Source: Nitrospira sp. (GTDB lineage Bacteria; Nitrospirota; Nitrospiria; Nitrospirales; Nitrospiraceae). From it: a stretch of DNA of 62,688 nt. Below are positions 21 to 61,096 of the stretch, piece after piece. Position 1 is the first letter of the stretch; each line of letters begins with the position of its first letter. The position numbers and the translations under genes are program-made. Under the pieces are notes generated by a model. That model was not told the origin of the DNA. It made no database searches and worked only from the letters and a program-made list of their open reading frames with translations. The DNA is taken from assembly GCA_031405355.1 (NCBI GenBank), contig JANNIV010000266.1, forward strand, positions 1 through 62,688, written 5' to 3'.

Positions 21-218
21 TTACTCCTCCCGATGCTTGAACCCAGCTGCGCTAAGGATTGCGTGACAAGTCCCGGTCGGCACTTCCCTTGAGCCATGAT
101 AATCAATACGGACCAGACGTTCTATCCCGGGCTTGCCATAATAACGAATGGAGCCCTTTTCCTTGATGAGTGTAAACCCATTGTGTTCCAACATCCTTAC
201 CAGCTCAGAGAACTTCAC
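21..218 (-). CDS. hicA: HicA-family type II toxin (small mRNA interferase)
   Basis: 65-aa ORF MKFSELVRMLEHNGFTLIKEKGSIRYYGKPG...IDYHGSREVPTGTCHAILSAAG. Size and the HG-x-x-E-x-P-x-GT motif are typical of HicA/YcfA toxins. Confidence 0.8.
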   Translation of the reverse strand: MKFSELVRMLEHNGFTLIKEKGSIRYYGKPGIERLVRIDYHGSREVPTGTCHAILSAAGFKHREE

Positions 219-733: not shown

Positions 734-764
734 TATTTCGTAGCACTGTATGATGCGAATACAC

Positions 765-1427
765 ATGTCACGATATGCATTGCTGGTGGCTCTGTTGGTG
801 ATGCTCTGTGCCACGGAGACCATGGCCTATACGATTGGATTCGATGGCCTGACCAGATCTAATCTGAGTACGTTCACTGGTTCATACGAAGAAGATGGTT
901 ACACCGTCGAAGCGACAAAGGGTCAATGGTTCGAAGCACATATCTTCGGCAGTTCTATTCCCGCTATTGGCTCCGGCCCACTCTATAGCTCAGATCTAGG
1001 TATGTCGCAGGTTACCATAACCGAGGGCGGGGAGCGGTTCATATTCCAGGGCGTTGACCTTACAAGCAACAGCGCCCTCGGAACCACATACACGATTCAA
1101 GGCTTCCTAGCGACAAGTGGCGAAAATCCGATTTTCACAATACCTGTTGAGGTTGAGGCAATTAATCGCTTCGAGTCGAAACTGTTCAGCAATTTAGAAT
1201 CTGTGGACAAGCTGACCATCACCGGAACTCGCGGCAGGGGTGTCACCTCATTCAATATCGACAACATCCGAGTCGGGCATTACATAGACCCAGGCTCATG
1301 TCCAGGTTCCGATCCCAATTGTCCAGCTGTCCCCGAGCCAGCGTCCATCATGCTCCTCGGCGTTGGTCTGGCTGGGGTTGAGGTCTGGAGAAGAAGAAGG
1401 GGTTCAGTCCGAAGGGGTGAAGGCTGA
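765..1427 (+). CDS. Secreted protein with C-terminal PEP-CTERM sorting signal
   Basis: Signal peptide MSRYALLVALLVMLCATETMA (ATG 765; the ORF opens at 750). The C-terminus VPEPASIMLLGVGLAGVEVWRRRR has the PEP motif, a TM helix and an Arg cluster. The last 12 codons and the stop lie inside repeat copy 3. Confidence 0.85.
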   Translation: MSRYALLVALLVMLCATETMAYTIGFDGLTRSNLSTFTGSYEEDGYTVEATKGQWFEAHIFGSSIPAIGSGPLYSSDLGMSQVTITEGGERFIFQGVDLTSNSALGTTYTIQGFLATSGENPIFTIPVEVEAINRFESKLFSNLESVDKLTITGTRGRGVTSFNIDNIRVGHYIDPGSCPGSDPNCPAVPEPASIMLLGVGLAGVEVWRRRRGSVRRGEG

Positions 1428-1572
1428 GGAAGATAGGCTGAAGGGGGAAGTCGGATTAGCGGAATGGGCGACGGTTCGAGGTCCGAAGTTCGAGGTTCTA
1501 GATTTCAGGAACTTCGAACCGGGAACTTCGAACCCCTAGCCCCCAGCCTGAACCCCTTCAGCCTATCCACCT
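1392..1572. repeat. Mosaic hairpin element, copy 3 (overlaps the 3' end of the PEP-CTERM gene)
   Basis: The left end is AGAAGAAGGGGTTCAG. The 23-mer GGCTGAGGAAGATAGGCTGAAGG (1422-1444) is identical to 5056-5078. The core is GGTTCGAGGTCCGAAGTTCGAGGTTC ... GAACTTCGAACC twice (1509-1520, 1523-1534). The right end is CCCTTCAGCCTATCCACCT. Confidence 0.85.
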
Positions 1573-1786: not shown

Positions 1787-4078
1787 ATGGTGATGAACCG
1801 CTATTGGCCTATTTCAGCCCTTGTGCTTCCGCTGCTGTTGATGGCCGTGAGCGGGTGCACGAAGGAAACAGCAGCGACGAAGGCGGCTCATCACAAGGAG
1901 CGAGCGATTGCCTATTTCGACAAGGGCGAATATCGCGAGGCGATCGTCGAACTGAAGAACGTCGTGCAAATCGCTCCGGACGATCATGACGCTCATTATC
2001 GGATGGCGCTGTCCCACCTGAAGCTGGGAACGGTCCCGGATCTTCAGCAATCGTTTAAGGAATTGTCCGCTACTGTCGAGTTGAACGCCGGGAATCAGGA
2101 CGCGCAGTTGAAGCTCGGACAGCTTCTGCTTCTGGCCAAGGAACCGGCAAAAGCCCGCGCGCATGCCGAGATCGTCCTGACCTCGGCGCCGGATAGCAAA
2201 GAGGGTGTGATCCTTCGCGGGGCAAGCTTGCTGAACGAAGGAAAAATCCAAGAAGGCATCGCAGAACTGAAGCGGGCGATCGTGCTGGATCCCCAGAACG
2301 TCAACCTCTACATCGATCTGGCCCGGGCCTACGTGCACATCAAAGATTATGGCTCGGCTGAATCGGTGTTGCAGCAGGCGTTGCAGGCCAATCCCCAATC
2401 GATCGAGGCGCGGTTCGCCCTCGGCGATCTCCATCTCATCAACAGGAAAGCCGACCTTGCCGAAGCCGAATACAAGCGCGCGCTCAGCGATGCGCCGGAT
2501 CGGCCGGAACCTCGCGTCAAGCTGGCCGGCTTCTATGCGTCGGTCAATCGCCTTGCCGATGCCGAAGCGACCTACTCAGCCTGGGTCCAATCTAAGCCGC
2601 AAGACGATGCTCCCTTGCTGGCCTTGGGGGATTTCTATCGAGCCACAGACCAACTCGACAAAGCCGCAGCTACGTATCAAAACGCGCTTGCCGTCAATCC
2701 GAAATCGACGGCCTCGCGGGATCGGCAGATTGCCGTACTCATCGCCAGCCACAAGCTCGATGAAGCAGAGCGACAGACCACCGCCATTCTGCAAGCGAAC
2801 AGCAAGGACTCCAGTGGCCGTCTCTTCGAGGCTCAGCTCAAGCTGGCCCGTGGACAGGTCGACAATGCCTTGCCTCTGCTTCAAGCCTTGAGTCAGGAGG
2901 AACCCCGCTCACCGGCCCCGCATCATTTCTTGGGCGTGGTCTATGCGAAGAAGGGCGATCTTCCCCAAGCCGTTCAGGAACTCAAAACGGTCATCGATCT
3001 GGCGCCGAATGCGATCGAATCGCATGCAGTTCTGGCCTCCGTCTATCTCACCCAAGGATCGGCAGACCTTGCCCTCGAACAAGCGCAGGCCGTGCTGCGC
3101 CTCAATCCCCGGAGCGTCCAGGCTGCCACGATCATGGGAGAGTCCTATCTGCGGAAAAACGATACGGCAAAGGCCGGCCAGGTCTTTGAATCGATCATCA
3201 AGGTCTCGCCGAACCATGAGATCGCGCATCACCGGCTGGGATTGATTGCGCGCTCCAACAAGAACCCTGTCGAGGCCCTGGCGCATTTCGAACAGGCGCT
3301 CAAGGCGAAGCCGGATTTCATTGAGCCGCTCGCACAGATTGCCACCATCAAGGCCAGCCAGGGCAAATTGGCCGAGGCGCGTGATCGCATCAAGCAACAT
3401 CGCGAGTTGGTCCCCAAGAACCCGCTGGTCTATAACCTGCTGGGCCAACTGTTCACTGCGACCAAGGAGTATGACCAGGCGGAGGCTTCGTTCAAGCAGG
3501 CGATCGCGCTGAATGACGCGATCCTTGAGTCCTATACCGGCCTTGCAGGACTGTACTTGCAGACGAAACGATTGGACGAGGCGATCCGGGAATATGAAAC
3601 CGCCCTGGCGAAAAATCCCAAGCTGGCCCCGGCCCATATGATGATCGGCATGATTCACGAGTCGCGCCAGCAGTATGATCAGGCGCAGGCACGTTATCAG
3701 GAGGCGGTCCGCATCAATCCACGGTTCGCTCCGGCAGCCAACAACTTGGCCTGGCTCATGGTCGAGCGCGGGGGGAACGTCGATGTCGCCTTGGGGTACG
3801 CGCAGACGGCGAGGGAGGTGACGCCGACCGATCCAAACGTTGCGGACACACTTGGGTGGATCTATTACCAGAAGAAGGTCTATCTAAAAGCGGTCTCCCT
3901 CCTGAAGGAAGCAGCCGATCAACTCCATGAGAATCCGGTGATCTTGTACCACTACGGCATGGCTCAGTATAAAAACGAAAATAAACCTGAAGCCCGCAAA
4001 GCTCTAGAGAAGTCGCTACAACTCAACGCGAACCATCCTGGCGCATCCGAAGCGAAGGCGACGTTGGCGGAGCTTTGA
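1787..4078 (+). CDS. TPR-repeat lipoprotein, PEP-CTERM-system PrsT-like
   Basis: 763 aa. Lipoprotein signal with lipobox LLLMAVSGC. The rest is wall-to-wall TPR units (repeated A..Y..AL.L.P motifs). It sits next to PEP-CTERM substrate genes, as in PEP-CTERM/exosortase loci. Confidence 0.85.
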   Translation: MVMNRYWPISALVLPLLLMAVSGCTKETAATKAAHHKERAIAYFDKGEYREAIVELKNVVQIAPDDHDAHYRMALSHLKLGTVPDLQQSFKELSATVELNAGNQDAQLKLGQLLLLAKEPAKARAHAEIVLTSAPDSKEGVILRGASLLNEGKIQEGIAELKRAIVLDPQNVNLYIDLARAYVHIKDYGSAESVLQQALQANPQSIEARFALGDLHLINRKADLAEAEYKRALSDAPDRPEPRVKLAGFYASVNRLADAEATYSAWVQSKPQDDAPLLALGDFYRATDQLDKAAATYQNALAVNPKSTASRDRQIAVLIASHKLDEAERQTTAILQANSKDSSGRLFEAQLKLARGQVDNALPLLQALSQEEPRSPAPHHFLGVVYAKKGDLPQAVQELKTVIDLAPNAIESHAVLASVYLTQGSADLALEQAQAVLRLNPRSVQAATIMGESYLRKNDTAKAGQVFESIIKVSPNHEIAHHRLGLIARSNKNPVEALAHFEQALKAKPDFIEPLAQIATIKASQGKLAEARDRIKQHRELVPKNPLVYNLLGQLFTATKEYDQAEASFKQAIALNDAILESYTGLAGLYLQTKRLDEAIREYETALAKNPKLAPAHMMIGMIHESRQQYDQAQARYQEAVRINPRFAPAANNLAWLMVERGGNVDVALGYAQTAREVTPTDPNVADTLGWIYYQKKVYLKAVSLLKEAADQLHENPVILYHYGMAQYKNENKPEARKALEKSLQLNANHPGASEAKATLAEL

Positions 4079-4080
4079 AA

Positions 4081-4166
4081 CAGGCTGAAGGGGTAAAGGC
4101 TGAAGTTCTTGGTTCGATGTTCTGGGTTCGAAGTTCCTGAAACCTCGAACTTCGAACCTCGAACCG
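4081..4166. repeat. Mosaic hairpin element, copy 4 (starts 3 nt after the TPR gene stop)
   Basis: CAGGCTGAAGGGGTAAAGGCTGAAG is followed by a perfect 12-bp stem, GGTTCGAAGTTC (4125-4136) / GAACTTCGAACC (4147-4158), with a 10-nt loop. No right-hand CTTCAGCCT arm is present. Confidence 0.75.
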
Positions 4167-4517: not shown

Positions 4518-5075
4518 ATGAAACGGTATCTGTGGCTTGTCGGTCCATTGGTAATGCTTTGGGGTGCTGAGGCAAGGGCGTCGAACATCGAATTCGAAAC
4601 CCATCACAATTCAAAGACAGACGGAGCCTATACTTCGTCCAACCAAGACGATTTCATCGGCAATTGGCCCCAAGGTACATGGCCTTTTGCAGGAAGTCCC
4701 ACCGATACGACGCGCCATATGTATTTCGCCGGCGCAACTGGGCAGTCGCAGGATGCCGAGGAACACCGCACCCACGAGAGGGATAAATTCAAAGATTTCG
4801 AATACAAGGACCGTGGTCGCAATGGGGATGACGATGACAAGTACAAGGTAAAAGGCGACTATCAGTATTCCAAGCACGATCGGGATTCTGGTCGGGATTA
4901 TGACCGGGACGATAAGAAGGACTATGATCGCGATAAGGATTACCCTAAACATCACGATAAATATCCTAAAGATCACCATGAGTATCAAAAAGTTCCCGAG
5001 CCAGCATCCCTCTTGCTCCTCGGCGCCGGGTTGGCTGGAATCGGGATCTGGAGGAGGCTGAGGAAGATAGGCTGA
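4518..5075 (+). CDS. Secreted, highly charged low-complexity protein with PEP-CTERM sorting signal
   Basis: Signal peptide MKRYLWLVGPLVMLWGAEARA (ATG 4518; the ORF opens with GTG 4476). The D/K/R/Y/H-rich body reads ...DRDSGRDYDRDDKKDYDRDKDYPKHHDKYPKDHHEYQK. The C-terminus VPEPASLLLLGAGLAGIGIWRRLRK is a PEP-CTERM signal. Confidence 0.85.
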   Translation: MKRYLWLVGPLVMLWGAEARASNIEFETHHNSKTDGAYTSSNQDDFIGNWPQGTWPFAGSPTDTTRHMYFAGATGQSQDAEEHRTHERDKFKDFEYKDRGRNGDDDDKYKVKGDYQYSKHDRDSGRDYDRDDKKDYDRDKDYPKHHDKYPKDHHEYQKVPEPASLLLLGAGLAGIGIWRRLRKIG

Positions 5076-5146
5076 AGGTTTCGGAACTTCGACCTCCAAC
5101 CTCCAACCTCCAACCTTCAGCCTGAATCCCTTCGGCCTATCTACCT
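5055..5146. repeat. Mosaic hairpin element, copy 5 (overlaps the 3' end of the second PEP-CTERM gene)
   Basis: Contains GGCTGAGGAAGATAGGCTGAAGG (5056-5078), GGAACTTCGACC, the heptamer CTCCAAC three times (5094-5114) and CTTCAGCCTGAATCCCTTCGGCCTATCTACCT. Confidence 0.85.
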
Positions 5147-5166
5147 AAATAGCTACCTTCACGCAG

Positions 5167-5203
5167 CGCCAGTCCTCGCAAGGGGGCTGGCTTTTTGTAT
5201 TTT
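5167..5203 (+). terminator. Rho-independent terminator candidate
   Basis: GCCAGTCC-TCGCAAGG-GGGCTGGC stem-loop followed by TTTTTGTATTTT. It lies downstream of the PEP-CTERM gene and repeat copy 5. Confidence 0.6.
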
Positions 5204-5267
5204 GAGCCGAGGGGGACTGGCTCCGGCTGAGAAGGGGGACAGTCCCGGTGCGGGACAGTCCCCGCCG

Positions 5268-5502: not shown

Positions 5503-5638
5503 GTAGGCTGAAGGGGTTCAGGCCGAAAGCAGGTCTGTCTCGTCTGTCTGGTCATCGGGTCTATCTGGTTCAACCAAATAAACCAAACAAACCAAATAGA
5601 CCAGACAGACCTTCCGTCAGCCTTCAGCCTATCTACCT
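5503..5638. repeat. Mosaic hairpin element, copy 6 (inverted near-identical twin of copy 2)
   Basis: GTAGGCTGAAGGGGTTCAGGCCGAAAGCA + 9-bp array + TTCCGTCAGCCTTCAGCCTATCTACCT. Matches the reverse complement of 615-712 at 97/98 positions. Confidence 0.9.
5532..5611. repeat. 9-bp-periodic palindromic array (5 + 4 units)
   Basis: GGTCTGTCT CGTCTGTCT GGTCATCG GGTCTATCT GGTTCAACC | AAATAAACC AAACAAACC AAATAGACC AGACAGACC. Confidence 0.9.
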
Positions 5639-5723
5639 AGTCGCCGGAGCGCCGAATTCACTCGATTTCGTTGACGGAAACAGCAGGTTCTGCCATCCTG
5701 GCACAAACCGCTGGGGAGGCATC

Positions 5724-7025
5724 ATGGCGCAGAAAAAAGAGCAGGCACGAAAAATTGCAGTTGTTGGACTTGGCTATGTGGGCCTTCCTATTGCTGTCGC
5801 ATTCGGGAAGCAGCAGCATGTGATCGGTTTTGACATCAACAAGGCCAAGATTGCTGAACTACAGAAGGGGCTTGACCGTACAGGGGAAGTGTCTGCCGCG
5901 GATCTGAAAGCGACGGACATTCAATATACCTATCAGCCCAGCGAGCTCAAAGCGGCTGATTTTATCATCGTGGCCGTGCCCACGCCTATTAATGAGGCCC
6001 TTCAGCCGGATTTGACGGCGCTTCGCAAATCGTCAGAATTGATCGGGGCCAACCTGGCGCCAGGATCGATCGTGGTCTTCGAGTCGACGGTCTATCCTGG
6101 AGCCACTGAGGAAGTGTGCCTGCCGATCCTCGAGCAGGCCTCCGGGATGAAGTGTGGAGTGGACTTCAAGCTCGGCTATTCTCCTGAACGGATCAATCCA
6201 GGCGATAAGGAACATCGGCTGGAAACCATCATCAAGGTGGTGTCGGCCCAAGACGACGCATCGCTGGAGATCGTCGCCAAGACCTACGAACTCGTGGTCA
6301 AGGCGGGGATCCATCGGGCTTCTAGTATCAAGGTGGCGGAGGCGGCGAAGGTGATTGAAAATACTCAGCGGGATCTGAACATCGCGCTGATGAACGAGTT
6401 GGCGCTCATTTTCCATCGGCTCGGGATCGATACGAAGTCGGTCCTGGAGGCTGCGGGAACCAAGTGGAACTTTCTCAAGTTTTCACCGGGATTGGTCGGC
6501 GGACATTGTATCGGGGTCGACCCCTATTACCTGACGAGCAAAGCCGAATCGGTGGGCTATCACCCCCAGGTGATTCTCGCAGGCCGGCGCATTAACAATG
6601 GCATGGGAAAGTTTGTAGCAGAGCAGACGATGAAGCGCTTGAGTGAGCTGGCTCGGCCGGTCAAGGAGCTCAAGGTGGCTGTCTTGGGACTCACCTTTAA
6701 AGAGAACGTGCCGGACTTACGCAACAGCAGGGTGCCGGACATTATTCGCGAACTGCGCGAGTATGGGGTGCAAGTCCTGGTGCATGATCCGATCGCGCAA
6801 ACAGAAGAGGCGTTCGAAGAGTACGGGATACATCTAAGCCAGTGGGACGATCTCAAAGATATCGACGGAATGGTTGTGGCAGTCGCGCATCGTAAATATG
6901 TCGATATGGGGATGCAGAAGTTGCTCAAGCCTCTCCGCAGTCAGCAGGAGGGGGTGGTGATCGATGTGAAATGTCTGCTCGATCCGGCGAAATTGCCAAA
7001 GACGCTGAAATACTGGCGGTTGTAG
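5724..7025 (+). CDS. Nucleotide-sugar 6-dehydrogenase (UDP-glucose/GDP-mannose dehydrogenase family; UDP-N-acetylhexosamine dehydrogenase-like, TviB/WbpO type)
   Basis: 433 aa. N-terminal Rossmann motif VVGLGYVGLPIAVAFG and catalytic Cys block GGHCIGVDPYY. Three-domain length typical of the family. Confidence 0.9.
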   Translation: MAQKKEQARKIAVVGLGYVGLPIAVAFGKQQHVIGFDINKAKIAELQKGLDRTGEVSAADLKATDIQYTYQPSELKAADFIIVAVPTPINEALQPDLTALRKSSELIGANLAPGSIVVFESTVYPGATEEVCLPILEQASGMKCGVDFKLGYSPERINPGDKEHRLETIIKVVSAQDDASLEIVAKTYELVVKAGIHRASSIKVAEAAKVIENTQRDLNIALMNELALIFHRLGIDTKSVLEAAGTKWNFLKFSPGLVGGHCIGVDPYYLTSKAESVGYHPQVILAGRRINNGMGKFVAEQTMKRLSELARPVKELKVAVLGLTFKENVPDLRNSRVPDIIRELREYGVQVLVHDPIAQTEEAFEEYGIHLSQWDDLKDIDGMVVAVAHRKYVDMGMQKLLKPLRSQQEGVVIDVKCLLDPAKLPKTLKYWRL

Positions 7026-7044
7026 CAGCCCCCGATCAGGTGTT

Positions 7045-7266
7045 TAGGCTGAAAGCACTAGGCTGAAAGCACTAGGCTGAAGGGATTCAGACTGAAGGCT
7101 GAAGTGTTCTGAACTTCGAACCATGACCTTCCCTGTCCGCCTCTAACTCAGAACTTAGAACCCAGAACTCAGAACTTCTCTGCCCGTCTCGCTCTCGCTT
7201 CACGACCTTCTCGACTCCCACGACCCCTAAAAACCTTCAGCCTAAAAATCTTCAGCCTATCTGCCT
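7045..7266. repeat. Mosaic hairpin element, copy 7 (largest)
   Basis: TAGGCTGAAAGCAC twice in tandem (7045-7072), then TAGGCTGAAGGGATTCAGACTGAAGGCTGAAG and GAACTTCGAACC. A heptamer run follows: CAGAACT TAGAACC CAGAACT CAGAACT (7149-7176). The element ends with CCTTCAGCCTAAAAATCTTCAGCCTATCTGCCT. Confidence 0.85.
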
Positions 7267-9000: not shown

Positions 9001-10344
9001 TTGAGGACCAATTTGCGATATGCGTGGTCGCTGGGCGGGATAGTCGCCGTCATATTCGGGCTCTGTTCCGGTGTCTCTGCGCAACAGCTTGGTGGGGGCG
9101 CCGCGGGGATCGGGGCGGGCACGATTCCGGGCACGCCCTTCGGGGGCGCCGTCGATCCCAGCATGGTGCAGGTCCGCGAGGGCTTCCAGGTGATTCCCTC
9201 GATCTCCGTCGGACAGCGCTACGACAGCAACGTGTTCTTTGTGCGCAAACGCCAGGGGCTCGATCGGGAGGATTTTGTGACCACCGCCGTGCCGCAAGTC
9301 CGCGGCTACTATGTCGGGAATTGGTTCGACGTCAACGCGACGGCGGGCGCGATCGGCGAGTACTACGCCAAGCACCCGAACCTCAATTACGTGGGCGCCA
9401 ATACCGGCCTCGTGCTGAACCTGAGCAAACTGCTGGATCGCTGGTGGCAAGGGGCGACGTTGACGGCCTCGGATACGTACGTCTATTCCCCGCAAGCCCC
9501 GGCGTTTATCGTGGGGAACCTGGCCGGGGCGAGTGCGACGCCCTTCGCGACCGGCTTTCAAGTGGGGCGCGCCAATGTGAGCCGCAATGTGCTGCGCACC
9601 GATCTCGCCGTGCCGCTCACCCAGACGGTCAGCCTGCTAGGGAGCTACGGGAACGGGTTCAACCGCTTTGGGACCTCGGACGTGCAGCAAGCCGGGATCT
9701 TGATCAATAGCACGTACCAGATCTATACGGGCGGGCTCTCGCTGAAGGCGTCGCCGCAGGATCTGCTCACGGTGCATGTGGTCAATACGGACTATAATTT
9801 TAGCACGCAAGCGGCCAGCTCCTTTACCACGCGGGGCGGCACTGTGGGGTGGGACCATACCCTCTCGCCCTTTCTGACCCTGCAAGCCCAGGCCGGGGCG
9901 ACCGTGCTGCAGCGGGACTTGGTGGGCACGAGCACCGCGGCCATCGTCGCCCCCATTGGGCATCTGGCTCTGATCTGGAAGGATCAGACGACCGCCCTGA
10001 CCCTGGCCTACGATCTCGGAGTCAGCCCCTCGTTTCAATTTCAGGCTCAAGCGCTCCGGACGCACGTGGTCTCGGTGACGCTGACGCAACAGACGGCCAT
10101 CCCGGAACTGCTCGCGGTCGCCAATGTGAACTATGGCCGCGGGGATCAGTACGGATCCTCGTCCGGGGCCGGCCTCTCTTATGCGTCGGTCATGGGGACC
10201 GGCGGTGTGGTGTATAAGTTCTCGCCCGAGACCTTTCTGGGCCTGCACTACAGCTACGCGAATGTGGATAACCAGTTCAACGGCAACACGTTTGCCTTCG
10301 ATCGGCACGTGGCGCAGCTCAGTCTGACCCAGGCGTTCTATTAA
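9001..10344 (+). CDS. Outer-membrane beta-barrel protein (EpsL-like, EPS-locus associated)
   Basis: TTG start abuts the previous stop. Signal peptide ...FGLCSGVSAQQ. The body has the alternating-residue composition of beta-strand proteins. The C-terminus LSLTQAFY ends in an aromatic residue, typical of OM barrels. Confidence 0.65.
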   Translation: MRTNLRYAWSLGGIVAVIFGLCSGVSAQQLGGGAAGIGAGTIPGTPFGGAVDPSMVQVREGFQVIPSISVGQRYDSNVFFVRKRQGLDREDFVTTAVPQVRGYYVGNWFDVNATAGAIGEYYAKHPNLNYVGANTGLVLNLSKLLDRWWQGATLTASDTYVYSPQAPAFIVGNLAGASATPFATGFQVGRANVSRNVLRTDLAVPLTQTVSLLGSYGNGFNRFGTSDVQQAGILINSTYQIYTGGLSLKASPQDLLTVHVVNTDYNFSTQAASSFTTRGGTVGWDHTLSPFLTLQAQAGATVLQRDLVGTSTAAIVAPIGHLALIWKDQTTALTLAYDLGVSPSFQFQAQALRTHVVSVTLTQQTAIPELLAVANVNYGRGDQYGSSSGAGLSYASVMGTGGVVYKFSPETFLGLHYSYANVDNQFNGNTFAFDRHVAQLSLTQAFY

Positions 10345-13797: not shown

Positions 13798-14699
13798 TCT
13801 GTTCTGGCGAGATAGCTCAGGGGAAGTTGAGGCATGTTCTGTCGTTTGATGTCGAGGAGCATTTTCAGGTTGCGGCATTCTGGTCGGCTGCGAGAAGGCG
13901 TGAGTGGAATCAGCTGGGGAGCCGGGTCGAGCGCAATACGAGGAAAGTCACCGAGCTGCTATCGGAGCATTCGACTAAGGCTACATTTTTCATTCTTGGG
14001 TGGGTTGCAGAACGGCATCCGGAAATGGTGAGAAATCTGGCGCAACAAGGTCATGAAATTGCGTCGCATGGGTATGGCCACGAACTCGTTCACACACAGA
14101 CGCCTGCTCAATTTCGTGAGGATGTCAGGCGGTCAAAACACATTTTGGAAGACCTGACTGGCAGGCAAGTTATGGGATACCGAGCGCCGAGTTTCTCGAT
14201 TACGTCTCGAACGAGATGGGCCATTTCCATCTTGATTGAAGAAGGGTATCGGTATGATTCGAGTATCTATAACCGATTTCAAGGCACCCAGGGGATCACC
14301 ATGGCCGGGGCTGGACCGTACCAACTTGAGACCGAGACTGGAACAATTTGGGAGGTGTCTCCGTCAACAATGAACGTCTGTGGATTTCAGCTGCCTGTCG
14401 CCGGTGGGGGATATTTTCGCCTCTTTCCCTATGCCGCTTCGAAAATGTTTCTGGAGAATCTTGAGAAGCAGGGATCGCAGCTTGTCATGTATTTCCATCC
14501 TTGGGAACTTGATTCTGAGCAGCCGCGCATGGATGGGCCGTTGCTCTCAAAGGTCCGTCATTATCTGAATCTCAGTAAGACGGAACAGCGTCTAAGGTGG
14601 TTGCTGAGGGATTTCTCCTTTGGCCCCATCAACCAGGTCGTTCAGCATGTTCGGTATATCTTTGAAAAACAGGGGGACCGTTCACATGCAACTGTGTAA
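13794..14699 (+). CDS. Polysaccharide deacetylase, PEP-CTERM/exosortase-locus subtype (NodB domain + DUF3473-like C-terminus)
   Basis: HVLSFDVEEHFQV, FFILGWVAERHPEMV and GHEIASHGYGH blocks. TTGA overlap with the previous gene. An alternative TTG start at 13827 is possible. Confidence 0.85.
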   Translation: MICSGEIAQGKLRHVLSFDVEEHFQVAAFWSAARRREWNQLGSRVERNTRKVTELLSEHSTKATFFILGWVAERHPEMVRNLAQQGHEIASHGYGHELVHTQTPAQFREDVRRSKHILEDLTGRQVMGYRAPSFSITSRTRWAISILIEEGYRYDSSIYNRFQGTQGITMAGAGPYQLETETGTIWEVSPSTMNVCGFQLPVAGGGYFRLFPYAASKMFLENLEKQGSQLVMYFHPWELDSEQPRMDGPLLSKVRHYLNLSKTEQRLRWLLRDFSFGPINQVVQHVRYIFEKQGDRSHATV

Positions 14700-15443: not shown

Positions 15444-17288
15444 ATGTATATACTTGGCATTTCTGCGTACTACCACGACAGCGCCGCTTGCCTGGTCCAC
15501 GATGGCGAGATTGTGGCGGCGGCCCAAGAAGAGCGGTTTACCCGCAAGAAGCACGATCCGGGATTCCCCCGCCGCGCGGTGGAATATTGTCTGGCCCAGG
15601 CCGGGATCGGCATCAAGGATCTGAAATATGTCGTGTTTTACGACAAGCCGCTGATCAAGTTTGAGCGGCTATTGGAAACGTACGTGGACTTCGCGCCCAA
15701 AGGAATTCAATCGTTCCTGGCTGCCATGCCCGTGTGGTTGAAAGAGAAACTCCTGCTGCGGACCGTGCTGCAAAAAGAAGTGTTGGCCTGTGCGCCCGGC
15801 CTCAGCAAATCGGCCTTGCCGGAGTTCCTCTTTGGCGAACATCATGAGTCCCATGCCGCGTCGGCCTTCTACGCCTCCCCCTACGAGCGGGCGGGGGTGC
15901 TCTGCATGGACGGGGTCGGCGAGTGGGCGACGACGTCAGCGTGGCTGGGGGAGGGCAACAAGCTGACTCCGCTGTGGGAGATTCCCTTTCCGCACTCGAT
16001 CGGGCTGCTGTATTCGGCCTTCACCTATTATACGGGGTTCAAGGTCAATTCCGGGGAATACAAAGTCATGGGGTTGGCGCCGTACGGAGAGCCGAAGTAC
16101 GTCAAGGCCATCTACGAACATCTGATCGATCTCAAGCCGGACGGCACGTTCAGAATGAACATGGAGTTTTTCAACTACTGCACGGGCTTGACCATGACGA
16201 GCCGGAAGTTCGACGGCATATTCGGCGGCCCTCCGCGTAAACCAGAATCCAAGTTCGGGCAGCGGGAAATGGATTTGGCTCGTTCGATTCAGGAGGTGAC
16301 TGAGGAAGTGATGCTGCGGCTGTCGCGGACGATGCACCGGGAAACGGGCGTGGAGCATCTCTGTTTGGCCGGCGGTGTGGCGCTCAATTGTGTGGGCAAT
16401 GGCCGGGTTCTTCGCGAGGGGCCCTTTGCCGGGATTTGGATTCAGCCGGCTGCCGGCGATGCCGGCGGCGCCGTGGGCGCGGCGCTGAGCGTATGGCACC
16501 AGTATGAGAACCAGCCCAGGATCTCGGACAATGTCCACGACAAGATGAAGGGGAGCTACCTCGGCCCGGCCTTCAGCAATGAGGACGTCGAAGTCAGGTT
16601 GAAAGGGATTGGAGCGGTCTATTGTCGAATCGAAGAGACGGAGTTGTATGGGCGGGTGGCCGAGGAGTTGGCCGAGGGCAAGGTCGTGGGGTGGCACCAG
16701 GGACGGATGGAGTTTGGGCCACGCTCGCTGGGCGGGCGCAGCATTCTCGGCGATGCGCGGAACACGAAAATGCAATCCGTGTTGAACCTCAAGATCAAGT
16801 ATCGGGAGTCGTTCAGACCCTTTGCGCCGTCGGTGTTGCGAGAACGGGTGTCGGACTATTTCCAAATGAACTGCGATAGCCCCTACATGCTGCTCGTGGC
16901 GCCCGTGCTTGCGAAGCGACGATTGCCCTTCGATCCTGGGAAGAAGGAGCTCTGGGGCATTGATCTCCTCAATGTGCCGCGTTCGGATATTCCGTCCGTC
17001 ACGCACATCGACTACTCGGCCCGAGTCCAGACGGTTCATGAAGAGACGAACCCACGCTACTATAAGTTGCTCAAGGCGTTTGAGGCGAAGACGGGCTATG
17101 CCACCTGTGTGAATACGTCGTTTAACGTGCGAGGCGAACCCATTGTATGCACGCCGGAGGATGCCTATCGCTGTTTCATGCGGACGGAGATGGATGTCCT
17201 GGTGATCGAGAATTACGTGCTGCGGAAAGAGGATCAGAAGCCCCTGGAAGGGGACTCGGATTGGAAGAAAGAATTCGAACTCGATTAG
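15444..17288 (+). CDS. Carbamoyltransferase (NodU/CmcH family)
   Basis: 614 aa. N-terminus MYILGISAYYHDSAACLV...AAQEERFTRKKHD, plus the C-terminal domain NTSFNVRGEPIVCTPEDA. Confidence 0.92.
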   Translation: MYILGISAYYHDSAACLVHDGEIVAAAQEERFTRKKHDPGFPRRAVEYCLAQAGIGIKDLKYVVFYDKPLIKFERLLETYVDFAPKGIQSFLAAMPVWLKEKLLLRTVLQKEVLACAPGLSKSALPEFLFGEHHESHAASAFYASPYERAGVLCMDGVGEWATTSAWLGEGNKLTPLWEIPFPHSIGLLYSAFTYYTGFKVNSGEYKVMGLAPYGEPKYVKAIYEHLIDLKPDGTFRMNMEFFNYCTGLTMTSRKFDGIFGGPPRKPESKFGQREMDLARSIQEVTEEVMLRLSRTMHRETGVEHLCLAGGVALNCVGNGRVLREGPFAGIWIQPAAGDAGGAVGAALSVWHQYENQPRISDNVHDKMKGSYLGPAFSNEDVEVRLKGIGAVYCRIEETELYGRVAEELAEGKVVGWHQGRMEFGPRSLGGRSILGDARNTKMQSVLNLKIKYRESFRPFAPSVLRERVSDYFQMNCDSPYMLLVAPVLAKRRLPFDPGKKELWGIDLLNVPRSDIPSVTHIDYSARVQTVHEETNPRYYKLLKAFEAKTGYATCVNTSFNVRGEPIVCTPEDAYRCFMRTEMDVLVIENYVLRKEDQKPLEGDSDWKKEFELD

Positions 17289-35275: not shown

Positions 35276-37216
35276 ATGTGTGGGATTGTCGCAGCGATAA
35301 ATTTTGATCGGACTGCCGTGGATAGCCGTCGTTTGGCGGTCATGCGGGATATGCTCCATCACCGAGGGCCGGACGACGAAGGGCTGTATGTCGACGGCCC
35401 TGTCGGCCTGGGGCATCGCCGCTTATCGATTATCGATCTTTCCGAGACCGGCCATCAGCCCATGTCGAACGAGGACGGCTCGGTCCGCGTGGTCTTCAAC
35501 GGCGAGATCTACAACTACCTTGAATTGACGCAAGCGCTGAAAGCGAAGGGCCATCGATTTTCGTCGTCTTCAGACACCGAAGTGATTCTCCATCAATACG
35601 AGGAAGAAGGAGAGGATTGCGTCAACCGGTTCAACGGGATGTTTTCGTTCGTTCTATGGGATCGGCGCCGGCGCCGGTTGTTTTCGGCCCGGGATCGGAT
35701 GGGCATCAAGCCGCTCTACTATTACCTGAGCCCAACGAAGTTGATCCTGGCTTCCGAGATCAAAGCGATCCTTGCGGATCCGGACGTTCCGAGGGCACTC
35801 GATCCCCAGGCGTTGGCCGATTATATGTTCTGCGGCCGGGCCTTGGGGGGCAAGACGATGTTTCGGAATATCCGTGAGGTCGAACCGGGGCATTGGTTGA
35901 GCGTTGATCTGGAGACCGGACGGCCTGTGATTCGGAAATACTGGCAGCTACATTATAACTATGACCGTTCGCGATCGGACGAAGCGGTAAAAGAAGAACT
36001 GCTCTATCGGCTGGACGAATCCGTCAAGATCCATTGTCGAAGTGATGCCGCCTTAGGGGCTCACTTGAGCGGAGGGCTGGATTCCAGCACGGTGGCTGCC
36101 CTGGCCGCGCGGCATCGCCAAGGGCTCAAAACCTTTTCAATCCGGTTTGCCGAAAACGGATTTCTGGACGAGACCCGTTTCGCCAAGGCCGTGGCCAGGC
36201 ATGTGGGAGCCGAATACTGTGAAGGCGAGCCTACTCCCATGGACATGGCCACTCGGCTTCCGTACTTGCTCTGGCATATGGATGTTCCGATGGCATCCCA
36301 GGGAGGCTTCGCCTATTTCATGACCTCCCAACTGGCCCAGCGCCACGTGAAGGTGTCTCTAACCGGGCATGGCGGTGACGAGTTGTTCGCGGGCTACCCA
36401 GCACAATTTCAGGCCAGTTTCGGTCGCACAGATATGTTTTTGCGGATGAACTATTCACATCGCATTGCCAAGGCTCCTATTGAGCGGTCTGTGATCAAGT
36501 CGCTGTTCGACCGCGGCATGGTAGGGTTGTATAGGTCGGTCCAGGACCGGTTGTTCAAACCTGAGAAAAATATCCGAGACCTTTGGATTCAATTGCATTG
36601 CAATCACTGGCCTGGGGGAAATCCGATCTTCGAGACCGATTTCAGGAAGGGGCTCGATGGCTATACTCCTGTCGATGATTATAGCGAGCCCTTTCATGAA
36701 GTCGGTACCGATCAGGTCCTGGATCAATGTCTCTATCATGATCTCGTGACGTACCTTCCCAGCCTGCTGCATCTCGAAGATCGCGTCAGCATGGCGCTTT
36801 CAATCGAGTCCAGGGTCCCCCTTCTCGACCATCGTCTTGTCGAGTATCTCGCTACGGTGCCGCCGGATCAAAAGGTGAGAGGGCTCGTGCCCAAGCATCT
36901 CTTACGACAGGTTGCCTCGGAACTGCTTCCGGAAGAGGTGTCGCAGAGGAAAGACAAATGCAATTTTCCCGTTCCGGATAATTTCTGGATGTCGCGTGAG
37001 ATGAAGGAGTTTACGGAGTCGGTCCTGATTGCCCCGGAAAGCTTGCAACGAGGGCTCTTTAAGCCCGAGACCCTGAAGCAGGCCTGCCATTACGGCGATT
37101 TGACTTGGGCGCTGATGAACGTAGAGCTGTGGTGCAAGATCTTTATCGATCAGGATCCAAATTGGACGGATCGGATCGCTCTGCATGCTACAGCTCATGC
37201 AGCAAGCGACAGATAG
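35276..37216 (+). CDS. Asparagine synthase-type glutamine amidotransferase (AsnB family), copy 1
   Basis: MCGIVAA with Cys2 nucleophile. Also HRGPDD, RRLSIIDL and the SGGLDSS PP-loop. Confidence 0.92.
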   Translation: MCGIVAAINFDRTAVDSRRLAVMRDMLHHRGPDDEGLYVDGPVGLGHRRLSIIDLSETGHQPMSNEDGSVRVVFNGEIYNYLELTQALKAKGHRFSSSSDTEVILHQYEEEGEDCVNRFNGMFSFVLWDRRRRRLFSARDRMGIKPLYYYLSPTKLILASEIKAILADPDVPRALDPQALADYMFCGRALGGKTMFRNIREVEPGHWLSVDLETGRPVIRKYWQLHYNYDRSRSDEAVKEELLYRLDESVKIHCRSDAALGAHLSGGLDSSTVAALAARHRQGLKTFSIRFAENGFLDETRFAKAVARHVGAEYCEGEPTPMDMATRLPYLLWHMDVPMASQGGFAYFMTSQLAQRHVKVSLTGHGGDELFAGYPAQFQASFGRTDMFLRMNYSHRIAKAPIERSVIKSLFDRGMVGLYRSVQDRLFKPEKNIRDLWIQLHCNHWPGGNPIFETDFRKGLDGYTPVDDYSEPFHEVGTDQVLDQCLYHDLVTYLPSLLHLEDRVSMALSIESRVPLLDHRLVEYLATVPPDQKVRGLVPKHLLRQVASELLPEEVSQRKDKCNFPVPDNFWMSREMKEFTESVLIAPESLQRGLFKPETLKQACHYGDLTWALMNVELWCKIFIDQDPNWTDRIALHATAHAASDR

Positions 37217-55113: not shown

Positions 55114-57012
55114 ATGTGTGGCATCGTCGGCATAAGGGACATGCGAGGACGGGCAGTGGCTCCTTCCTGGATCGACTCGATGAACGATTCGATCGTCCAT
55201 CGTGGCCCGGACGACAGTGGAAGCTATGTGAACCGGGGAATTGGAATCGGGATGCGTCGCCTCTCGATCATCGACGTCGCCGGCGGCAAGCAGCCGGTTT
55301 ACAATGAGGATAAGAGTATCTGGGTCGTGTTTAACGGAGAGATCTACAATCATCGTGAGTTGCGAAAGGATCTTGAGGGCGCCGGGCACCGGTTTTATAC
55401 CCATAGCGATTCCGAAACGATAGTCCACCTCTACGAGCAATATGGGGTAGAAGGGGTCTCGATGCTGAGGGGAATGTTTGCCTATGCCCTCTGGGATGGG
55501 AACGCTGAACGGCTACTGTTAGCGCGGGATCGAATTGGAATCAAACCTCTGTTTTATTCCGTCGTCGACGGACGGTTAGTGTTTGCCTCTGAGCTGAAGG
55601 CGTTTTTCCGGCTCCCCTGGTTTACGTCCGATGTGAATCAGTCCGCGGTTCACCGATTTCTTGCCTACCTCTACATTCCTGGGCCCGAGACGATTTATCA
55701 GAACATTGTCGAGCTTCCACCGGCTCACACGCTGGTGTGCGAACGCGGACAAATATCGATTAAGCGGTATTGGAGCTTGCAGTTCCGATCGCAACCGATC
55801 GTGTCGATTCAGGAATGGGAGGAGCGCTTTCTTGCACAGTTTAGAGATAGCGTGAAAAGCCATCTCATCAGCGAGGTGCCCCTCGGCGCGTTCCTGTCGG
55901 GAGGGATCGATTCAAGCGCCATTGTGGGTGTGATGGCGCAGGAGTCGACAAAACCGGTGTTGACGTTTTCAATCGGCCATGAAGGGAAGGGATCGTTTCA
56001 AGATGAACGGGCGTTTGCGCGAATCGTAGCGGAACGATTTCAGACCGAGCATCACGAATTCGTGGTGACCACGGATATCAAGGATCTCTTGCCGAAGCTG
56101 GTGGCCTGCTTCGATCAGCCGTTTGCAGACTCTTCCGCTATCCCGAACTACTATGTAAGCCAGATGACGAGGCAGCACGTGACCGTCGCGCTGTCCGGAT
56201 TGGGAGGGGATGAAATAGGCGGTGGCTACGAACGGTATATCGGCATGCTGTGGGCTGAAGTCTTTAGGAGACTTCCACCTTCGATGCGCGCGGTTCTTGG
56301 AGAGAAATGGGCGCATCTGCTTCCGGACGTCGCAACGGGACACCCCTGGATGAGCCGACTCAAGCGATTTCTTGCTGCGGCTGAAAAGTCGCCCGCAGCT
56401 CGATATGCGGCGTTCATCACGGCGTTTTCCGAGAAGGAGCGGGAGAGTCTGTTGCACAAAGATTTCTTGGGCAGCCAGACTCTTGTGAGTCCTGAAAGTC
56501 TGGTTGCCGATCTATTTGATTCAGGCGATGCCGACGGATTGCTGCATAGTCTGTTGCTTAGTGACATGCACCTGTACCTTCCTGGAGACCTCCTCACGCT
56601 GACGGACCGAGTGAGTATGTACCACTCGCTCGAGGTGCGAGTGCCGTTTCTCGATCATCCGCTGGTCGAGCTTATGGCCCAAATTCCCCCTCGCTACAAG
56701 ACATCTCTGAGCTCCAAGAAGATTCTGTTTAAGCAGGCATTCCGAGACTTGCTTCCTTCGAATATCTTGCACCGTAAGAAGCTTGGGTTTTCTGTGCCGC
56801 TCGGGCTCTGGCTCCGTACAGATCTCAAGCCGATGATGTGCGACATTCTTTCAGATCACATCATCAAGGACATCGGGTTTCTCAATGTGGCCGAGGTGCA
56901 ACGAATTGTGTCCGAACATATTGCGGGAGATGCCAATCATGAGAACAAGCTGTGGGCTTTGATTAACCTGGTCTCCTGGTGGCGAGATGTTCGCCGACCC
57001 CACTCAAGCTAA
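55114..57012 (+). CDS. Asparagine synthase-type glutamine amidotransferase (AsnB family), copy 2
   Basis: MCGIVGI, HRGPDD, RRLSIIDV and the SGGIDSS PP-loop. Starts 3 nt after the previous stop. Confidence 0.92.
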   Translation: MCGIVGIRDMRGRAVAPSWIDSMNDSIVHRGPDDSGSYVNRGIGIGMRRLSIIDVAGGKQPVYNEDKSIWVVFNGEIYNHRELRKDLEGAGHRFYTHSDSETIVHLYEQYGVEGVSMLRGMFAYALWDGNAERLLLARDRIGIKPLFYSVVDGRLVFASELKAFFRLPWFTSDVNQSAVHRFLAYLYIPGPETIYQNIVELPPAHTLVCERGQISIKRYWSLQFRSQPIVSIQEWEERFLAQFRDSVKSHLISEVPLGAFLSGGIDSSAIVGVMAQESTKPVLTFSIGHEGKGSFQDERAFARIVAERFQTEHHEFVVTTDIKDLLPKLVACFDQPFADSSAIPNYYVSQMTRQHVTVALSGLGGDEIGGGYERYIGMLWAEVFRRLPPSMRAVLGEKWAHLLPDVATGHPWMSRLKRFLAAAEKSPAARYAAFITAFSEKERESLLHKDFLGSQTLVSPESLVADLFDSGDADGLLHSLLLSDMHLYLPGDLLTLTDRVSMYHSLEVRVPFLDHPLVELMAQIPPRYKTSLSSKKILFKQAFRDLLPSNILHRKKLGFSVPLGLWLRTDLKPMMCDILSDHIIKDIGFLNVAEVQRIVSEHIAGDANHENKLWALINLVSWWRDVRRPHSS

Positions 57013-59980: not shown

Positions 59981-60985
59981 ATGCGTATTCTTATTACAGG
60001 CGGAGCCGGGTTTCTTGGAAGTCATCTCTCCGATGTGTTGGTGCAGTCTGGACATTCCGTGATCTGCATGGACAACCTCCTTACCGGACGGGTCGAGAAT
60101 ATCGCTCACCTGATCGGGCAGGAGCGATTTTCTTTTGTCAAATACAATGTGTGCGATTATGTGCATGTGGAGGGTCCGCTGGACGCGGTTATGCATTTCG
60201 CCTCGCCTGCGAGCCCGCAAGACTACCTCGAATTTCCTATTGCCACGCTGAAGGTTGGCGCCTTAGGCACGCATAAAGTTCTTGGACTCGCCAAGGCAAA
60301 GGGGGCGCGGTTTCTCTTGGCCAGCACGTCGGAAGTCTATGGGGACCCGTTGGTGAATCCTCAGCCTGAATCCTATTGGGGCAACGTCAACCCCCTCAGC
60401 CCCCGTGGCGTATACGACGAGGCCAAGCGTTTTGCAGAAGCCCTCACGATGGCCTACCATCGCTATCATGCGGTCGATACCAGAATCGTTCGCATCTTCA
60501 ATACGTTCGGGCCGCGCATGAGGCCGAATGACGGACGCGTCGTGTCGACCTTCATCGTTCAGGCGCTGCAAGGGAAACCGTTGAGCGTCTTCGGCGATGG
60601 ATCTCAGACCAGGAGTTTCTGCTACGTGGACGACTTGGTCCGCGGGATCACCGGGTTACTGCTTCTGGAATCAGATAGGACAGTCGAACAACGGACCGAT
60701 CGCAAGTTCCTCATGACGCAAAAGAAGGACGCCAACGATACCAGCATGCACGATCCTGTGAATATCGGGAACCCACAAGAACTGACGGTCCTAGAGATCG
60801 CAAAATTGGTGTTGAAACTCACCAACTCAGCAAGCCTCATCACCTACCATCCGTTGCCCGCCGATGATCCCAAGGTCAGACGCCCCGATATCAGTCGGGC
60901 TCGTACTCTCCTGAAATGGGAGCCTCAGGTACAGTTGGAAGATGCCCTCATACGCACGATCGACTACTTCAAGAAAGTGATCTAG
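59981..60985 (+). CDS. UDP-glucuronate decarboxylase (UDP-xylose synthase), extended SDR
   Basis: [58 protein letters not shown]. Confidence 0.92.
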
Positions 60986-61000
60986 CAGCATAAGAATGCC

Positions 61001-61096
61001 GTTGTCTGGTCTATCTGGTTTGTTTGGTTGATTTGGTTCATCTGGTTAGTTTCGTTCAACCAAAAAACCAAACAAACCAAATCAACCAGATCAACC
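61001..61096. repeat. 9-bp-periodic palindromic array (6 + 4 units), distal copy
   Basis: (GTTGTCT) GGTCTATCT GGTTTGTTT GGTTGATTT GGTTCATCT GGTTAGTTT CGTTCAACC | AAAAAACC AAACAAACC AAATCAACC AGATCAACC. Lies between the UXS gene and proA. Confidence 0.9.

Follow-up and report, generated by a model that had tools for sequence, protein, structure and literature searches.

Two PEP-CTERM genes of a Nitrospira sp. end inside compound palindromic repeats that are also found 3' of many other genes

Results

Two PEP-CTERM genes share a 23-mer that is read in two frames

We analyzed a stretch of 62,688 nt from Nitrospira sp. (contig JANNIV010000266.1 of assembly GCA_031405355.1), here called the window, in which two genes for PEP-CTERM proteins, gene 1 and gene 2, end inside copies of a repeat. 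The PEP-CTERM sorting domain is located at the protein C-terminus and consists of a PEP motif, a hydrophobic helix of about 14 residues, and a basic cluster of about 5 residues (Haft 2006, PMC1569441). An earlier note on this DNA had claimed that the repeat encodes the Arg-rich tails and the stop codons of both proteins, and had proposed a direct link between the repeat and the sorting signal. The genes and the two copies of the shared 23-mer are as follows.

750-1427, plus strand: gene 1, PEP-CTERM protein of 225 aa; TIGR02595 domain at residues 194-217 (nt 1329-1400)
4518-5075, plus strand: gene 2, PEP-CTERM protein of 185 aa; TIGR02595 domain at residues 159-183 (nt 4992-5066)
1422-1444, plus strand: 23-mer GGCTGAGGAAGATAGGCTGAAGG, copy 1, with two cores 14 nt apart
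5056-5078: 23-mer GGCTGAGGAAGATAGGCTGAAGG, copy 2, left arm of element E5

The domain was recognized in both proteins above the cutoff of 16 bits (20.0 bits for gene 1 and 25.7 bits for gene 2), and no other PEP-CTERM gene end is present in the window. The genomic context of a PEP-CTERM system is also present. PrsT is encoded at 1787-4078 (TIGR02917, 382.8 bits versus a cutoff of 312), an exopolysaccharide (EPS) cluster follows downstream of it in the window, and the exosortase EpsH is found in an orthologous locus, L008 (related loci are denoted by L numbers).

The 23-mer GGCTGAGGAAGATAGGCTGAAGG occurs exactly twice in the window; no further match was found with up to 3 mismatches, and shuffled sequences predict 0 copies. 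Gene 1 ends with ...GGT GAA GGC TGA, and its stop codon (1425-1427) is the first TGA of the 23-mer. Gene 2 ends with AGG AGG CTG AGG AAG ATA GGC TGA, and its stop codon (5073-5075) is the second TGA. The identity of the 23-mer at both sites, its reading in two frames and the use of two different TGA codons were thus confirmed exactly as the note had described them. In gene 1, the domain match ends at residue 217, the last R of RRRR. The residues GSVRRGEG beyond it are an add-on, and this tail is encoded, together with the stop codon (1401-1427), in repeat units. In gene 2, the domain match reaches residue 183 of 185, and R-L-R-K-I-G plus the stop codon are encoded by the 23-mer. A 16-mer, AGAAGAAGGGGTTCAG, is also present as two exact copies, at 323-338 and 1392-1407 (0.06 expected), and 12 of its 16 bases are plain repeat consensus.

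The 23-mer is an ordinary two-unit arm variant of a larger repeat family. Its last 18 nt match the family terminus AGGTAGATAGGCTGAAGG except for a single T-to-A substitution, which turns TAG into AAG (Lys) in the frame of gene 2, and variants with up to 2 mismatches were found after PrsT, after a dehydrogenase gene, and in intergenic DNA.

The repeat forms long compound palindromes

The core motif AGGCTGAAGG was found 31 times in the window with up to one mismatch, versus 4.2 expected occurrences, nearly always between 300 and 7260 and on both strands. Seven compound palindromes, E1 to E7, fill the first 7.3 kb of the window, and five of them are not located at PEP-CTERM gene ends. They are listed together with the only terminator that is discussed below.

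323-463: E1, non-coding, upstream of gene 1; left end formed by the 16-mer; hairpin z-score -7.6
570-737: E2, non-coding; head GTAACGACTCAGG at 570, GGCTGAAGG arms, GGTCTG/GGTTTG-type core; z-score -10.3
1398-1580: E3; left arm 1398-1446 (15/14-nt units) overlapping the end of gene 1, GTTCGA-type core, right arm 1546-1580
4081-4165: E4, beginning 3 nt past the PrsT stop codon (4076-4078); left arm and GTTCGA-type core
5056-5156: E5; left arm formed by the 23-mer, short core, right arm ending in the head GTAGCTATTTAGG-TAGATA (5144-5156, minus strand)
5504-5639: E6, intergenic, upstream of the dehydrogenase gene; right terminus CCCTTCAGCCTATCTACCTAG; z-score -10.7
7038-7262: E7, beginning 13 nt past the stop codon (7023-7025) of the TviB-like dehydrogenase gene
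5168-5200, plus strand: intrinsic terminator downstream of E5, 10-bp stem and T-run

In each copy, tandem units build the left arm, the center is a palindromic core of short period, and the right arm is complementary to the left one. The units have lengths of 14 or 15 nt and consist of GGCTGAAGG plus GGTTCA, while the palindromic cores are interchangeable and belong to a GTTCGAAC type or to a GGTCTG/GGTTTG type. In the window and the related loci together, 239 exact core motifs were counted in about 160 kb, and the units were spaced by 15 nt (n=81), 14 nt (n=33), or 7 nt (n=47). E3 was predicted to fold into one long hairpin of -98 kcal/mol (z-score -5.6) with the stop codon of gene 1 at the base of the stem. 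For E5, the z-score was -2.4 when the flanks and the terminator were included (5040-5215), and -4.2 for the element alone (5050-5143).

An unbiased sample was generated by scanning metagenome contigs with an internal arm motif that is free of gene-tail sequence, and a strict filter retained 23 elements at 18 loci. The arms of these copies carry a conserved outer head, GTA(A/G)CTACTCAGG-TAGATA-GGCTGAAGG, and inverted termini are present in the family. In the window, the head was found to the left of E2 (570) and to the right of E5 (5144-5156), and it was not present on the gene side of E3 or E5.

E5 lies between the stop codon of gene 2 and the intrinsic terminator, and is thus situated in the 3'-untranslated region (UTR); the flank with the terminator is conserved in L002-L004. 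In a terminator scan of the window, none of the elements had a T-run terminator at its outer right end, and the matches inside elements were only minimal 6-bp stems with weak T tails in E2 and E6 (619, 715, 5618-). A search against Rfam yielded 0 matches at the gathering score in the whole window. The remaining 55 kb, a densely packed EPS operon on the plus strand, are devoid of such elements despite several gaps of at least 150 nt.

A second palindromic module with a period of 9 nt (GGTCTATCT / GGTTTGTTT and the complement) was observed at 1631-1767, at 626-705 within E2, at 5530-5611 within E6, and at about 61005-61092. It serves as the core of GGCTGAAGG elements and also stands alone. The copy near 61 kb begins about 20 nt past the stop codon of an epimerase gene (59981-60985), and the site at 1631-1767 has a different sequence in L001, a 95 % relative.

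The arms supply stop codons, and the tails differ between close relatives

An ideal array of 15-nt units is translated in its three frames into G*RGSG*, AEGVQAEGVQ, and LKGFRLKGFR. Stop codons, TAG and TGA, are present in two of the frames at the arm tip; after a 15-nt unit the TGA recurs in frame, and after a 14-nt unit it falls into another frame. Because of these stops and the periodicity of the units, an open reading frame (ORF) that enters an arm is closed within a few codons (...R-G-x-G-stop, ...AEGVQ..., ...RLKGF...), and the 23-mer can be read in two frames because its two GGCTGA cores lie 14 nt apart.

Point mutations of TGA and the gain or loss of units move the stop codon between units, and therefore close orthologs have different tails. 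Among 93 homologs of gene 1 from metagenome-assembled genomes of Nitrospira, 54 end with a basic residue plus GxG-stop, which is one unit in frame 0, and 15 more have tails from other repeat frames, e.g. RLKAEGVQVEG, GEGWGFRLKSVG, or GLGCGR. The homologs of gene 2 alternate between RRLRKIG, KRRRG, KRWKG, and AMKIEKGV-type tails. In L001, with an ortholog of gene 1 that is 95 % identical, the same element is present without an indel, and translation stops at GGT TGA AGG, yielding the tail RRRRGLG*. The window has GTC CGA AGG at this position, and translation continues for 15 nt to the TGA of the next unit. In L006 (Nitrospira sp. ELA165, 62 % identity) the TGA of the 23-mer is changed to TGC, and the TAG of ATAGGCTG is used instead (tail GLGCGR*), while a change of TGA to TGG in L008 lengthens the tail to GEGWGFRLKSVG*. 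The orthologs of gene 2 in L002-L004 are 98 % identical. They end with AAA AGA AGA AGG GGT TAA and are followed by a longer, different version of the element; the divergence starts straight after the Trp codon, and the alignment resumes at the terminator. In the same 98 % strain comparison, E6 of L002 has one extra 14-nt unit.

Every genome that was compared has an element at the orthologous sites. The outer terminus CCCTTCAGCCTATCTACCTAG did not vary among five genomes, whereas the type of core did, and L006 and L008 share an orthologous junction at E1. The comparison of five to six orthologous sites revealed neither an empty site nor a target duplication nor a presence/absence polymorphism. 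The sites are thus old and persistent, and the internal turnover of the elements is rapid.

The right arm, (CCTTCAGCC TGAACC)n, is read in one frame as EPLQPEPLQP and contains a spurious 'PEPLQPEP', e.g. in the L135 ORFs ending at 9852 and 15622 and in the L136 ORF ending at 4530. This reading leads to false 'PEP' matches in motif searches for PEP-CTERM proteins.

PEP-CTERM gene ends are enriched locally, but the family is found at many other genes

We inspected 34 PEP-CTERM gene ends, all from the EPS/PEP-CTERM locus in 13 related genomes. The stop codon is located in or against a core motif at 25 of them, the first core follows 4-30 nt downstream of the stop at 7, and no core is present within 30 nt at 2. 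The location of the stop codon and the last codons inside the repeat, in two frames, is thus not restricted to genes 1 and 2, but a general feature at these 13 loci. The gene calls of 10 loci were used for a comparison with other genes, in which orthologous sites were included, so that the counts are not independent. A core within 30 nt of the stop was found for 24 of 25 PEP-CTERM genes versus 30 of 102 other genes (Fisher p 5e-10), and a stop overlapping or abutting a core for 18 of 25 versus 12 of 102 (Fisher p 6e-9). Accordingly, other PEP-CTERM genes also carry the repeat at their 3' ends, so that the outcome named as a refutation in the earlier note did not occur, and L139 is consistent with the enrichment. 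The 30 other genes comprise the 12 that overlap or abut a core and 18 with a core starting 4-30 nt downstream; about 2 % would be expected by chance.

Two of these other genes are repeatedly followed by an element. Every PrsT ortholog has the repeat 2-11 nt downstream, and in L006, L135, and L136 the TAG stop codon of PrsT is the TAG of TAGGCTGAAGG. For the dehydrogenase gene, the repeat was found at +24/25 in 9 of 12 loci with an examined 3' end (including the window, L006, L007, L008, L011, L134, and L136). No core was present within 30 nt in L002 and L139, and in L009 only a near-core 20 nt upstream was found.

In the unbiased sample, none of the 24 convergent ORFs flanking the elements encodes a PEP-CTERM protein, and 15 of the 24 have their stop codon at or inside the arm. 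The proteins ending in an arm include three of at least 365, 491, and 922 aa, with the tails ...SAAG*, ...GVQAAG*, and ...GVQAEG*. One metagenome contig with a GC content of 40 %, L129, carries elements at 6507-6660 and 9958-10131 that share the core and have a head of a related type, GTAACTACTCAGGTGGTTAGGCTGAAGG; this Nitrospira lineage may not be the only one to contain the family or a relative of it.

The proposal of a dedicated link between element and sorting signal was not supported. Five of the seven elements in the window lie elsewhere, none of the 24 ORFs flanking the unbiased elements is a PEP-CTERM gene, no insertion event is visible, and the sorting domain and the element were not homogenized together. 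What is left of the link is a strong local enrichment.

The basic cluster is repeat-encoded in part in gene 2 and mostly native in gene 1

The note had further claimed that the basic cluster is derived from the repeat in both genes. For gene 2, this applies in part. The Trp codon and the first Arg codon are followed by AGG CTG AGG AAG ATA GGC TGA, which equals two repeat units, so that R-L-R-K is repeat-encoded; the CTG of the core accounts for the Leu within the basic cluster. Tails of the type KRLKAAK/R also contain an exact core.

For gene 1, the claim mostly failed, because the Arg codons are native. In its orthologs, the first three Arg codons vary synonymously (AGA/CGG/CGA/AGG), a hallmark of selection at the protein level, and the overlap with a unit, at its GAAGG end, is limited to the last AGG. 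Apart from PEP-CTERM gene ends, the sequence AGAAGAAGGGG was found at a single non-coding site, E1. Both AGAAGAA and AGAAGAAGGGG are absent from the unbiased copies, in which the usual predecessor of a unit is GGCTGAA. The AGAAGAAGG of E1 may be a decayed terminal core. We also considered, and rejected, that E1 could be what remains of a PEP-CTERM gene end, as no coding remnant of a PEP motif or a transmembrane helix is present upstream in a matching frame.

Four distant homologs (less than 45 % identity) have retained the basic cluster and have unrelated tails. Most other PEP-CTERM families of Nitrospira have short canonical tails (RRKAAR, RRKARG), and their stop codons precede the first full core by 10-18 nt. 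The GxG codons are nearly fixed (GGT GAA GGC in 5 of 7 DNA tails, a small sample), which would fit a conservation as repeat unit rather than as peptide.

A few short or uncalled ORFs consist of little more than a PEP-CTERM domain and a repeat-encoded tail (RRKAAKG, RRLRKIG), i.e. L008 6963-7247 and 15534-15788 and the L135 ORF ending at 14199. They may be decayed PEP-CTERM genes, of which the 3' end and the element have survived.

Gene conversion and a candidate transposase were rejected as explanations

Gene conversion of a cassette, by which the PEP-CTERM domain and the element would be homogenized among paralogs, was rejected, as the pattern of identities gives no sign of it. The identity of the 57-nt PEP-CTERM domain DNA is 84 % for orthologs, 75 % for paralogs at the same locus, and 77 % for unrelated pairs, and, where the residue is identical, the codon is identical as well in 68 %, 47 %, and 50 % of cases, respectively.

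No Y1 homolog was found in the window or in 12 related loci. One gene for a transposase similar to REP-associated tyrosine transposases (RAYT, named after repetitive extragenic palindromic (REP) elements) is present in L013 at 1031-1681 on the minus strand (Y1 transposase, NF047646, 78.9 bits versus a cutoff of 80). It has no GGCTGAAGG repeat beside it and no homolog elsewhere, and it was therefore dropped as a candidate mobilizer. Next to it, at 1994-2350 on the plus strand, an ORF of 118 aa corresponds to the AAA-lid/HTH_8 end of a sigma-54 activator, the rest of which is missing; a PrsR-like regulator gene may have been disrupted by the transposase.

Further features of the locus

A HicA toxin gene is located at the start of the window (21-218, minus strand; PF07927, E 9e-12). 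In L001, L008, L009, L013, and L134-L138, changing toxin-antitoxin genes (HicA/HicB, BrnT/BrnA, HigB, MqsA-like, HEPN/nucleotidyltransferase) are found between the PEP-CTERM genes, and the PEP-CTERM part of the locus is a variable, repeat-dense island. The EPS cluster contains two paralogous genes of the AsnB-type glutamine amidotransferase / asparagine synthase family (35276-37216 and 55114-57012) and a carbamoyltransferase gene (15444-17288).

Discussion

A repeat family at 3' gene ends

We regard the repeat as a compound palindromic family of Nitrospira-type genomes that resembles REP elements and bacterial interspersed mosaic elements (BIMEs), and assign this reading a probability of about 0.72. 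The copies are extragenic, multicopy, imperfect palindromes that lie mostly 3' of ORFs, as is typical for REPs and BIMEs. A copy would sit directly 3' of its gene, between the stop codon and the terminator, and would fold into a long hairpin; the repeats would thereby occupy the 3'-UTRs of separately transcribed genes in the EPS/PEP-CTERM region. The more frequent overlap with PEP-CTERM genes could have several reasons. First, these genes are short and presumably transcribed separately with 3'-UTRs of their own. Second, the residues that follow the first basic ones form a cytoplasmic tail, which is probably cleaved off (Haft 2006, PMC1569441). It would thus be under little constraint, and an arm could creep into the ORF without cost. 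Third, the open frames of the repeat are rich in Arg and Lys. By analogy to the REPs of E. coli, the hairpins probably protect the 3' end of the mRNA and, when they are located within 15 nt of the stop codon, probably influence the termination of translation.

Several points weigh against this reading. No sign of mobility was seen, and all compared orthologous sites are filled. No transposase could be tied to the family, and the sole RAYT-like gene, that of L013, is adjoined by neither the head nor the arm motif. The median hairpin z-scores were -5.6 for 46 elements from the related loci and -3.6 for the 23 unbiased elements, but the definition of an element demanded plus-strand cores followed by minus-strand cores, so that the hairpin signal is partly built in. 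Transcription of the elements and their role at the RNA level are predictions only. The strong enrichment at PEP-CTERM ends of the EPS locus (24/25 versus 30/102) is accounted for only by presumed properties, namely tolerance and gene architecture. Lastly, the contigs of the unbiased sample are taxonomically unassigned; most have a GC content of 55-58 %, like the window, and one of 40 %.

Other explanations

The most probable alternative, although still unlikely, is a functional 3'-UTR module of a PEP-CTERM/EPS regulon. The hairpin with the embedded stop codon would be selected to tune termination, the half-life of the mRNA, or co-regulation of the secreted proteins, and the slippage of units would generate heritable variation of the tail length. 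The sites are conserved across species while the cores have been swapped for other palindromes, which suggests that structure was kept over sequence. Moreover, the elements are confined to the regulatory/PEP-CTERM part of the window and are lacking in the 55-kb operon, and REP effects near stop codons have a precedent. However, the same family is found at many unrelated genes, and the tails vary freely between near-identical strains, which looks neutral. The near fixation of the GxG codons in orthologs of about 60 % identity would also be in favor of a module, but this observation comes from seven DNA tails only. A more specific version, in which a selected module couples the termination of translation to mRNA stability, and unit slippage and stop hopping vary the length and charge of the tail seen by the exosortase machinery, is improbable.

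A mobile element that inserts preferentially at PEP-CTERM ends, e.g. by recognizing the purine-rich run of Arg/Lys codons, and rebuilds the tail each time, was one of the two origins proposed in the note. It could explain why nearly all PEP-CTERM ends in the EPS locus are occupied (24/25), and why the whole element plus the tail has been exchanged between 98 %-identical orthologs of gene 2 with a breakpoint just past the Trp codon. In addition, the AGA-AGG codons and the end of a unit share a GAAGG micro-homology. Nevertheless, we consider targeted insertion unlikely. None of the 24 ORFs of the unbiased sample and only two of the seven elements of the window fit such a preference. Sites that are filled in all orthologs down to about 60 % protein identity and have invariant termini must be old. 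The gene side of the elements lacks the head, unlike the remnant of a complete insertion, and no cognate transposase was found in the window and the related loci.

The reverse origin, in which the family arose from the 3' end of a PEP-CTERM gene and the run of Arg codons is ancestral to the GGCTGAAGG core, is very unlikely. It is true that one unit in frame 0 gives R-G-x-G-stop, the commonest tail of gene 1, that the non-coding E1 begins with AGAAGAAGG, similar to the Arg run, and that several tails (KRLK, RRLRK) hold an exact core in the basic cluster. Yet the unbiased copies never carry AGAAGAAGGGG, and their head is unrelated to any PEP-CTERM sequence; related heads even occur in a contig with 40 % GC. 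No coding remnant of a PEP motif or helix precedes E1, and the divergence of the PEP-CTERM domain DNA is synonymous and follows the gene families, with no sign of co-amplification with the repeat.

The chance that the similarity is a mere by-product of AGA/AGG Arg codons is negligible, because the 23-mer and the cores occur far more often than chance would predict, the arms pair with complementary right arms downstream, and the unit structure is identical at non-coding sites; this explanation is refuted for the 23-mer and the stop codons and holds for only 4 nt of the 16-mer, of which the AGAAGAA part represents native Arg codons that match one degenerate non-coding copy.

Implications

The REP/BIME-like reading implies that the C-terminal residues of many Nitrospira proteins (...GEG, ...GVQAEG, ...RLKAESEG, ...RKIG) are encoded by a repeat and vary between strains, and that they should not be interpreted as functional motifs. 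The highest density of the family is near the PEP-CTERM/EPS genes, the basis of floc and biofilm formation, in an environmentally important lineage of nitrifiers, and the hairpins are predicted at positions at which REPs are known to affect mRNA stability and termination. A new principle that ties non-coding repeats to protein sorting does not emerge. The donation of stop codons at gene ends by REP-type repeats and REP arrays beside EPS genes have already been published (PMC3733652), while the Nitrospira family is abundant and undescribed: we found no description of such a Nitrospira repeat in the literature, and Nitrospirota are not among the phyla listed in the survey of GTAG REPs (PMC3733652).

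Comparison with known repeat systems

Intragenic REPs and the Rickettsia palindromic elements are palindromes that have turned into coding sequences and add residues to unrelated proteins, and in this respect the Nitrospira repeat is similar. However, the Rickettsia elements are CGTC-tagged and lie in frame inside genes, whereas the Nitrospira repeat overlaps ORFs only at the extreme 3' end and terminates translation. Miniature inverted-repeat transposable elements such as Correia/NEMIS share with it the length of 100-220 nt, the terminal inverted repeats, the intergenic location, and the ability to alter the ends or transcripts of neighboring genes. In contrast to these elements, neither a target-site duplication nor an insertion polymorphism was seen for the Nitrospira repeat, and its internal structure is modular and repetitive.

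Liang, Rudd & Deutscher (2015), as cited in PMC5082802 and PMC12306157, reported the stalling of ribosomes in E. coli at REPs located up to 15 nt from a stop codon. As in those accounts, the Nitrospira genes have a stable predicted hairpin at the stop codon or within a few nucleotides of it, and the same geometry is found at 24 of 25 PEP-CTERM genes. The E. coli REPs of these accounts lie outside the ORF, whereas the Nitrospira arm often contains the stop codon and up to about 15 codons, and an effect on translation is suggested only by analogy.

The closest likeness is to GTAG REPs. They end in GTAG, are located mostly downstream of coding regions, and can supply stop codons with their termini; in Thauera sp. 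MZ1T, arrays of GTAG repeats flank EPS genes (Di Nocera et al. 2013, PMC3733652). Like GTAG REPs and BIMEs (PMC3733652; Nunvar et al. 2010, PMC2817692), the Nitrospira family has many palindromic copies, mostly 3' of genes between unidirectional or convergent ORFs, which cluster in opposite orientation into larger hairpins, and TAG and TGA are donated to ORFs. Several features are different. A GTAG REP is a single palindrome of 20-40 bp, whereas the Nitrospira elements are compound, have lengths of 90-220 nt, and contain arms of tandem direct 14/15-nt units and cores that are interchangeable short-period palindromes. In GTAG REPs a bare GTAG abuts the stem, whereas the Nitrospira head, GTA(A/G)CTACTCAGG, contains GTAG/GTAA and GGTAG at a different position relative to the stem. 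In addition, no RAYT gene flanked by the repeat was found in the window and 12 related loci. With this architecture, the compound elements of Nitrospira are closer to BIME-like composites.

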